Origin: a virus
Direction: 5' to 3' (one strand)
Length of the DNA stretch: 64,000 nucleotides
IMG/VR virus record: IMGVR_UViG_3300045988_134731
Location: 64,001 to 128,000 of that record
The DNA's letters: not shown here
Below: the continuation of a report on this DNA, generated by a model with database tools

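Follow-up and report, generated by a model that had tools for sequence, protein, structure and literature searches.

The A/T-only 15-mer AAAATAATTAATAAA occurs in 42 exact copies in the 64-kb window, compared to 0.09 expected from dinucleotide-preserving shuffles, and the count rises to 64 copies with at most one mismatch (1.83 expected) and to 92 with at most two (18.4 expected). We use "copy" for a match with at most one mismatch unless stated otherwise. All 64 copies are co-oriented with transcription, with 55 on the minus strand at 2.8-41.6 kb (the minus arm) and 9 on the plus strand at 48.3-61.5 kb (the plus arm), and the strand switch of the motif coincides with that of the genes, of GC skew, and of purine skew. 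The same polarity was found in the other, partly overlapping loci that we fetched, where 263/263 exact copies agree with the local coding strand. Transcription and replication run in the same direction in both arms, and polarity alone cannot tell them apart; we tie the motif to gene expression because its spacing to -35 boxes and Shine-Dalgarno sequences (SDs) is fixed.

Using heuristic gene calls made for this analysis, we found a copy within 130 nt upstream of 39/68 minus-arm genes, 7/21 plus-arm genes, and 0/7 central genes; the central block (41.6-48.25 kb) contains zero copies. Motif density is about 1 per kb, with sites within late operons too, while the genes of tight operons, such as those at 5.4-10.2 kb, have no upstream copy. 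Only 3/64 copies lie deep inside genes, though 80% of the window is coding. The motif has TAA in two of its three frames, so that compact upstream genes end in the box; the upstream gene ends in or against the motif for 30/64 copies. The initial annotation had described an oriented 15-mer that sits at almost every junction, supplies stop codons, and is absent from the central block. Our counts confirm the oriented array, the stop codons, and the empty block, but "almost every junction" was too broad, with an upstream copy for only 46 of the 96 called genes and tight operons without any.

The conserved span covers positions 0-14 plus a weaker TA at -2/-1, with conservation at background level on both sides, and these sharp edges hold when copies are gathered from 7-mer seeds rather than from the full motif. 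The conserved core is 15-17 nt in most copies, and we write the box as (TA)AAAATAATTAATAAA. It is asymmetric and AT-rich, contains no G and no dyad symmetry, and has A-tracts about 11 nt apart. Nine copies, all at 30-40 kb and clustered in the origin-proximal early region, add a 9-nt 5' extension to give a 24-nt long box, ATGATAGTA-AAAATAATTAATAAA. Since this is the sole extension and conservation is otherwise at background beyond 15-17 nt, we rejected the possibility that the motif is part of a longer repeat or mobile element. When the motif was masked, the next most frequent oriented repeat had only about 7 copies and was bipartite and promoter-like, and we rejected the possibility that the operator is really a different repeat. 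Comparing orthologous junctions in relatives of 80-97% identity, we measured mismatch rates of 1.3% in the motif and of 6.3-10.9% in its flanks, SDs and coding sequence included (odds ratio 0.14, p 5e-16; 50 pairs from 12 copies, not phylogenetically independent), such that substitutions are about 5-fold rarer in the motif than in its flanks.

Twenty-four copies, which we call P-type, are followed by a host-type promoter, often a perfect or near-perfect TTGACA-16/18-TATAAT, with the start codon 53-83 nt downstream; an independent promoter scan placed 17 of its 18 best matches on the coding strand. Of these copies, 16 lie 3-7 nt and 8 lie 14-18 nt ahead of the -35 box, and no gap falls in the range of 8-13 nt. 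These two classes lie about one helical turn apart, which fits a face-specific interaction at the DNA level. Numbered from the -35 gap, P-type copies lie mostly at about -40 to -54, the classical activator/UP position and not the core promoter, and taken by itself this placement counts against an operator.

Another 26 copies, which we call R-type, abut an SD: most have an SD that begins at -2 to +3 nt relative to the end of the motif, and in 23/26 the start codon follows 12-18 nt downstream. R-type copies at 39926-39940, 39366-39380, and 30227-30241 lie in the 5'UTR just past a promoter, and the majority of R-type copies are operon-internal. We rejected the idea that R-type copies are cryptic sigma-A promoters acting through the internal AATAAT, as the best -35 match at the appropriate distance from it is at background level (3.27 vs 3.36 mismatches). 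The remaining 14 copies are found in other contexts, including 5 at gene ends directly ahead of terminator hairpins. These 5, along with the 3 deep intragenic copies, are without an evident regulatory target, which also weighs against an operator.

The window derives from a 137.6-kb metagenomic scaffold (ENA ERZ28664291) that belongs to a family of IMG/VR viral contigs of 114-140 kb. It encodes distant homologs of the SPbeta genes yonV (E 1e-101), terminase yonF, yonG, yonJ, and yoqD, and the downstream structural region has the Pfam families YonG_N, YonD_N, YonB, and YomV. In the central block, we found DnaA boxes as three perfect repeats, an FtsK-like gene, and a gene for a Rep3 initiator accompanied by iterons; genes for an actin-like segregation protein and a Xer-like recombinase lie in the minus arm. 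Judged by portal and repressor similarity, the element's closest relatives in culture are the Clostridioides difficile phages phiCD211, LIBA2945, and relatives, which are about 130 kb and extrachromosomal (PMC5786514). A megablast search found no near-identical cultured phage or plasmid, and the sole isolate-genome match was an "uncultured Firmicutes" MAG fragment. Most likely, the element is a temperate phage-plasmid whose host is a low-GC Firmicute of the gut.

To place the motif among viruses, we scanned 2.9 million IMG/VR viral contigs with the RBS-fused 20-mer. Multi-copy contigs were confined to this phage family, and other viral contigs, of 32-38% GC, had single copies only; the motif is therefore not a general trait of AT-rich phages. 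The structural-gene region of the fetched locus L001 also carries copies, and SPbeta has no copy of the window's motif.

SPbeta MrpR (YopR, also SroF) binds a repeated 15-bp element, SPBRE, at 10 promoter regions, represses PaimR and PyosX, and has a tyrosine-recombinase fold without catalytic activity (PMC10516654). In phi3T, monomeric SroF recognizes an asymmetric, AT-rich box of 26 bp and reads 24 bp of it; multiple such sites are dispersed across the genome, and an antirepressor frees the protein from them (bioRxiv 10.1101/2025.11.27.690993). We propose that the box in the window is probably the recognition site of the phage-plasmid's own master lysogeny repressor of the MrpR/YopR/SroF family, a 290-aa protein encoded at 27328-28200(-). 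Several features of the array favor this reading: it is sharply bounded and polar, it is absent from the maintenance block, the repressor gene has only a degenerate copy at its promoter, and the whole architecture matches published operator/stoperator logic (PMC9283540). The link between the 290-aa protein and the box is circumstantial.

The 290-aa protein had no significant match in a local, older copy of Pfam. On the other hand, phmmer matched it to SPbeta YopR (E 1.6e-4), its best PDB sequence matches were SroF and YopR/MrpR, and a 24-sequence profile matched phi3T SroF (9rd5) with an E value of 5.5e-6. The domain PF22823 (MrpR_C_cat, "MrpR C-terminal catalytic domain"), which together with PF22822 marks the family, was precomputed in 42/42 close homologs. 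The AF2 model of the protein had a pLDDT of 90.5, and its top 7 PDB matches in Foldseek were SroF-DNA, SroF-Sar, MrpR, and YopR structures (E 7e-9 to 2e-7), compared to E values of at least 4e-4 for the true recombinases Xer, Cre, IntI, and lambda Int. In an alignment with YopR, YopP, and the window's Xer-like protein, the 290-aa protein lacks the catalytic Arg (GKGFKDL vs ALRNSEL), the HxxR and LGH motifs, and the nucleophile-Tyr box. It belongs to the MrpR/YopR/SroF family, with a recombinase fold, and is predicted to be catalytically dead.

Two other sets of candidate readers were rejected. The Xer-like protein (30312-31199(-)) keeps the catalytic R/HxxR/Y residues and all catalytic motifs and matches XerC/D/H, so the MrpR homolog is not this protein but its Pfam-negative 290-aa neighbor. 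The proteins of the central block were screened as repressor candidates, and no DNA-binding domain was detected.

Three metagenomic relatives and C. difficile LIBA2945 keep the order of an intact recombinase gene followed by the MrpR-like gene, an order that parallels that of yopP and yopR in SPbeta. The MrpR-like locus is arranged as a terminator, an exact copy of the box, a 2-mismatch copy, a promoter, the gene, and a second terminator, and the gene looks transcriptionally insulated. The degenerate 2-mismatch copy lies 5 nt ahead of TTGTCA-17-TATAAT, the MrpR-like gene's own promoter. A 1-mismatch copy lies at the promoter of the Xer-like gene, which the plasmid state presumably requires, and this arrangement is not one that an operator would lead one to expect.

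We infer that the MrpR-like protein binds the box, represses initiation, and at internal copies blocks elongation. The protein would bind the asymmetric box as a monomer. At the 24 copies just upstream of a near-consensus sigma-A -35 box, it would block initiation, possibly by occupying the UP-element position, and at copies between a promoter or upstream cistron and the next SD, it would act as a polar roadblock, in the manner of the L5 mycobacteriophage "stoperators." The strong lytic promoters of the two arms, dozens in number, would thereby be silent while the motif-free replication/partition block stays on, and the box could serve as an UP element once the repressor has gone.

To compare the positions of the box with those of a known operator, we derived the SPBRE core from the SPbeta record as AATATGTATA, with ACAAATACAAAW ahead. 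This core recovers exactly the 10 published MrpR ChAP-seq target genes, each co-oriented. SPBRE is fused to the SD at yopM (AATATGTATAtAGGAGG), yopV, and yonX, and lies 6 nt ahead of the -35 box at aimR (AATATGTATAaaataaTTGACT). Since SPBRE itself occurs in both contexts, neither the RBS-fused nor the "UP-element" position speaks against an operator in this lineage.

The likeness to SPbeta extends further. Both elements fall broadly within one phage lineage, the structural and early genes here being of SPbeta type, and in both the repressor homolog is encoded downstream of an intact tyrosine recombinase gene. Like SPBRE, the box is asymmetric, AT-rich, repeated, dispersed, and co-oriented with the downstream gene, and it takes the same two positions, just 5' of a -35 box or fused to an SD. 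In 9 copies it has a 24-nt form, and these long boxes would fit both the roughly 24-bp readout of SroF and the roughly 10 sites of SPbeta; the core is otherwise 15-17 nt, shorter than the 24 bp of SroF, which does not help the operator reading.

On the other hand, the box sequence is unrelated to SPBRE (AAAATAATTAATAAA vs ...ACAAATACAAAWAATATGTATA...), and the 64 copies in 64 kb compare to about 10-14 in the 134 kb of SPbeta, a density about 10-fold higher. The main departure is in placement: SPbeta has about 10 sites at operon heads, whereas copies here are also operon-internal, in the late arm, and at gene ends. This density and the sites inside late operons are further observations that an operator does not readily accommodate. 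The repressor is also 290 rather than 325 aa and only about 15% identical in a structural alignment, and the replicon, with its Rep3 initiator, DnaA boxes, and actin-like protein, is plasmid-prophage-like, unlike that of SPbeta. In the 81 of 137.6 kb examined by phmmer, we detected no homologs of AimR (yopK), Sar (YosL), YonO, or SPbeta ORFs beyond those described above, so the regulatory circuit here may be unlike that of SPbeta. Altogether, the array is best filed with the SPBRE/MrpR kind by repressor family and operator positions, while box, density, site placement, and replicon differ. A literature search of incomplete coverage found no report of such an array in this clade or in C. difficile phage-plasmids.

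We also compared the box between relatives with increasingly divergent MrpR-like proteins. A locus whose protein is 59% identical (L061) has the identical 15-mer in 18 copies in 21 kb, and one at 50% identity (L063) has the core unchanged, AATAATTAATA. At 37% identity (L062), the box is TAAATATAAAATTAATAAA; in another relative (L018), it is ATAGAAATTAATAA; and in C. difficile LIBA2945, whose MrpR-like protein is about 30% identical, it is TAAATAAAAT. Two TAAATAAAAT copies bracket the -35 box of the xerC/MrpR-like operon of LIBA2945, and others lie just ahead of SDs. The 3' half of the box is common to the metagenomic relatives, and the 5' half is lineage-specific. Box and repressor vary together here, with the overall phylogenetic divergence of the phages as a confounder.

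Among the rival explanations, we first consider that the motif is a signal for host machinery, that is, an UP element bound by the RNA polymerase alpha C-terminal domains before the -35 box and an A/U translational enhancer before the SD, with no phage factor involved. An UP element is A/T-rich, lies at about -40 to -60, acts in a helically phased manner, and is read by host RNA polymerase. The box resembles it in being A/T-only with A-tracts about 11 nt apart, in the P-type position, which is roughly -40 to -54 or another helical turn upstream of that, and in its phasing, and the R-type position abutting the SD (-2 to +3 nt) and the co-orientation with transcription would likewise suit host signals. 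However, UP elements and A/U enhancers are degenerate, while the 42 copies are identical at 15/15 positions, have sharp edges, and change about 5-fold more rarely than flanks that include SDs and coding sequence. We know of no UP elements found as 42 identical copies, in 5'UTRs, or at operon-internal junctions. One sequence would also need to suit two unrelated machines, the 5' half varies between phage lineages while the architecture stays constant, copies before terminators and in 5'UTRs past promoters fit neither use, and the maintenance genes are without the motif. We consider a host signal unlikely.

A second alternative is that the motif is a promoter, or the key element of one, for a phage sigma-like protein or for a YonO-type RNA polymerase encoded outside the window, with transcription starting at its 3' edge and nearly every gene having its own phage-specific start. 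A 392-aa sigma-like protein and two ECF-like sigmas are encoded, and with three phage sigma-like proteins, promoter elements specific to the phage must be present somewhere. Promoters of this kind typically show strict polarity, high copy number, and exact conservation, and the internal AATAAT resembles a -10 box and is placed as one at 22744-22758. SPbeta relatives transcribe their late genes with a phage RNA polymerase (PMC5467207). Promoters of the sigma-70 family are bipartite, however, and in a two-block test (-35 and -10 about 17 bp apart) the motif fails, being one uninterrupted block that lacks a conserved partner within +/-40 nt, in keeping with the background-level -35 matches of the R-type copies. 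A start at the 3' edge would place the SD at the very 5' end of the mRNA, given the start codon 12-18 nt away, and the fixed, helically phased gap to host-type -35 boxes would be left without a reason. A better candidate for a phage-sigma promoter is the bipartite TCATAGGTAATTT-N13-GTTAATAY, which has 7 co-oriented copies. The YonO-type polymerase was rejected, with no YonO homolog in the 81 kb and a single start site for the entire late operon in SPbeta YonO (PMC5467207). These findings make a phage-specific promoter very unlikely.

We also considered whether the motif serves primarily as a recombination junction, in which identical 15-mers act as cassette crossover points between co-infecting relatives, by short homology or through the Xer-like recombinase. 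Short-homology recombination has reportedly been proposed for cassette swapping at the PeSL of T4. An association of the motif with breakpoints in relatives had been put forward as a check in the initial annotation, and we found it in part. In the early arm, 71% of alignment breakpoints lie in junction zones, and within these zones 41% are within 10 nt of a copy compared to 20.5% expected (p 0.0017), an enrichment of only about 2-fold that is in part circular, since any alignment will run on as far as a shared island. Alignments stop exactly at motif edges, copies occur at gene 3' ends even before terminators, upstream genes end in the motif in the 30/64 cases, and an intact tyrosine recombinase gene is conserved nearby. 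On the other hand, a complete tyrosine-recombinase core site consists of two inverted arms and a spacer, and the motif is too short for one and has no dyad symmetry. Recombination alone would leave the phased -35 spacing, the tight SD spacing, and the absence from the maintenance block unexplained. With alignment endpoints near the motif at 15% vs 4.6% in a global test and the roughly 2-fold enrichment in the arm-restricted one, the evidence was too weak and too circular, and we rejected recombination as the primary role, for which we see little probability. Since the box is identical at many junctions, it tends to mark points of module exchange between relatives, and this exchange is likely a by-product of an operator array.

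Least probable is an RNA-level signal, in which the motif would be a site in polycistronic mRNA for endoribonuclease cleavage or for entry into decay, separating cistrons or setting the timing of decay. In its favor, the motif lies without exception on the sense strand between cistrons, is A/U-rich and unstructured as typical RNase Y/E targets are, and is immediately 5' of SDs in 26 copies. However, 24 copies lie upstream of promoters at a fixed spacing to the -35 box, a feature of DNA, and endonuclease sites rarely require 15 exact bases. An Rfam search of the window gave no match and no structure, which also removed a known RNA family as the identity of the motif, and the window has no tRNAs. 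In addition, the homologous SPbeta box in these positions has been shown by experiment to be a DNA operator (PMC10516654).

The proposed operator array of the MrpR-like repressor can be set beside other dispersed, oriented sites. In cluster A/L5 mycobacteriophages, a monomeric repressor acts at more than 20 asymmetric stoperators in promoters and short intergenic spaces, whose orientation follows transcription and is required for function (PMC9283540). The array here is likewise made of more than 20 short asymmetric sites in such positions, with orientation strictly following transcription in the window and in the other loci, a repressor proposed to be monomeric, and a site consensus that varies between related phages. 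Cluster A stoperators block elongation in an orientation-dependent way, as the internal copies here may do. The cluster A repressor is of the gp71 type, with an N-terminal HTH and a Stoperator domain, while the candidate reader here has a recombinase fold, so the relation would be one of analogy and not membership; the cluster A stoperator is also a GC-rich 13-mer in an actinobacterial host, and the density here is higher.

P1 C1 is the monomeric repressor of a plasmid prophage, with an asymmetric 17-bp operator at more than a dozen sites dispersed over the genome. The element here is similar in its plasmid-prophage character, its proposed monomeric repressor, and its asymmetric dispersed operators, but the protein is unrelated, and the P1 sites are far fewer and at operon heads only.

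The motif had also been called a start-associated sequence and compared with that of cluster K mycobacteriophages (SAS), with which it shares a short asymmetric repeat in one orientation near gene starts, an upstream stop that is sometimes inside, and, as in SAS/ESAS, a subset with an upstream extension. The cluster K SAS lies at the RBS position, contains AGGAG, is 3-7 bp from the start codon, is found in the non-structural half only, and is absent from host genomes (PMC3203893). The comparison did not hold up, as our motif contains no G and no SD, lies upstream of the SD or of whole promoters with the start codon 12-18 or 53-83 nt away, and is found in both arms.

The characterization of MrpR/SroF-type repressors dates only from 2023-2025 and comes from two Bacillus phages, each of which has about ten operators (PMC10516654; bioRxiv 10.1101/2025.11.27.690993). 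Our findings suggest that the family reaches abundant uncultured phage-plasmids of the human gut and the 130-kb phage-plasmids of C. difficile, whose homolog is still annotated as "hypothetical protein." A wider reading, which we regard as possible though doubtful, is that gut Firmicute phage-plasmids have scaled a recombinase-fold monomeric repressor into a gene-by-gene silencing grid. One identical, polar operator, present at about half of the gene boundaries, would keep about two dozen consensus promoters from initiating, act as a roadblock to read-through within operons, supply both an UP element and the stop codon of the upstream gene, and form a joint for cassette exchange, such that new genes would come automatically under lysogenic control.

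The box is a ready marker of gene boundaries, promoters, and immunity groups in these metagenomic phages, and box and repressor together could form a compact orthogonal repression module for low-GC Firmicutes. If the operator reading is true, one clade would have expanded the operator about ten-fold into a stoperator-like grid. Genome-wide polar silencing by a monomeric repressor would then have been invented a second time, independently, and the puzzle of why stoperators depend on orientation would become testable in a different protein fold.

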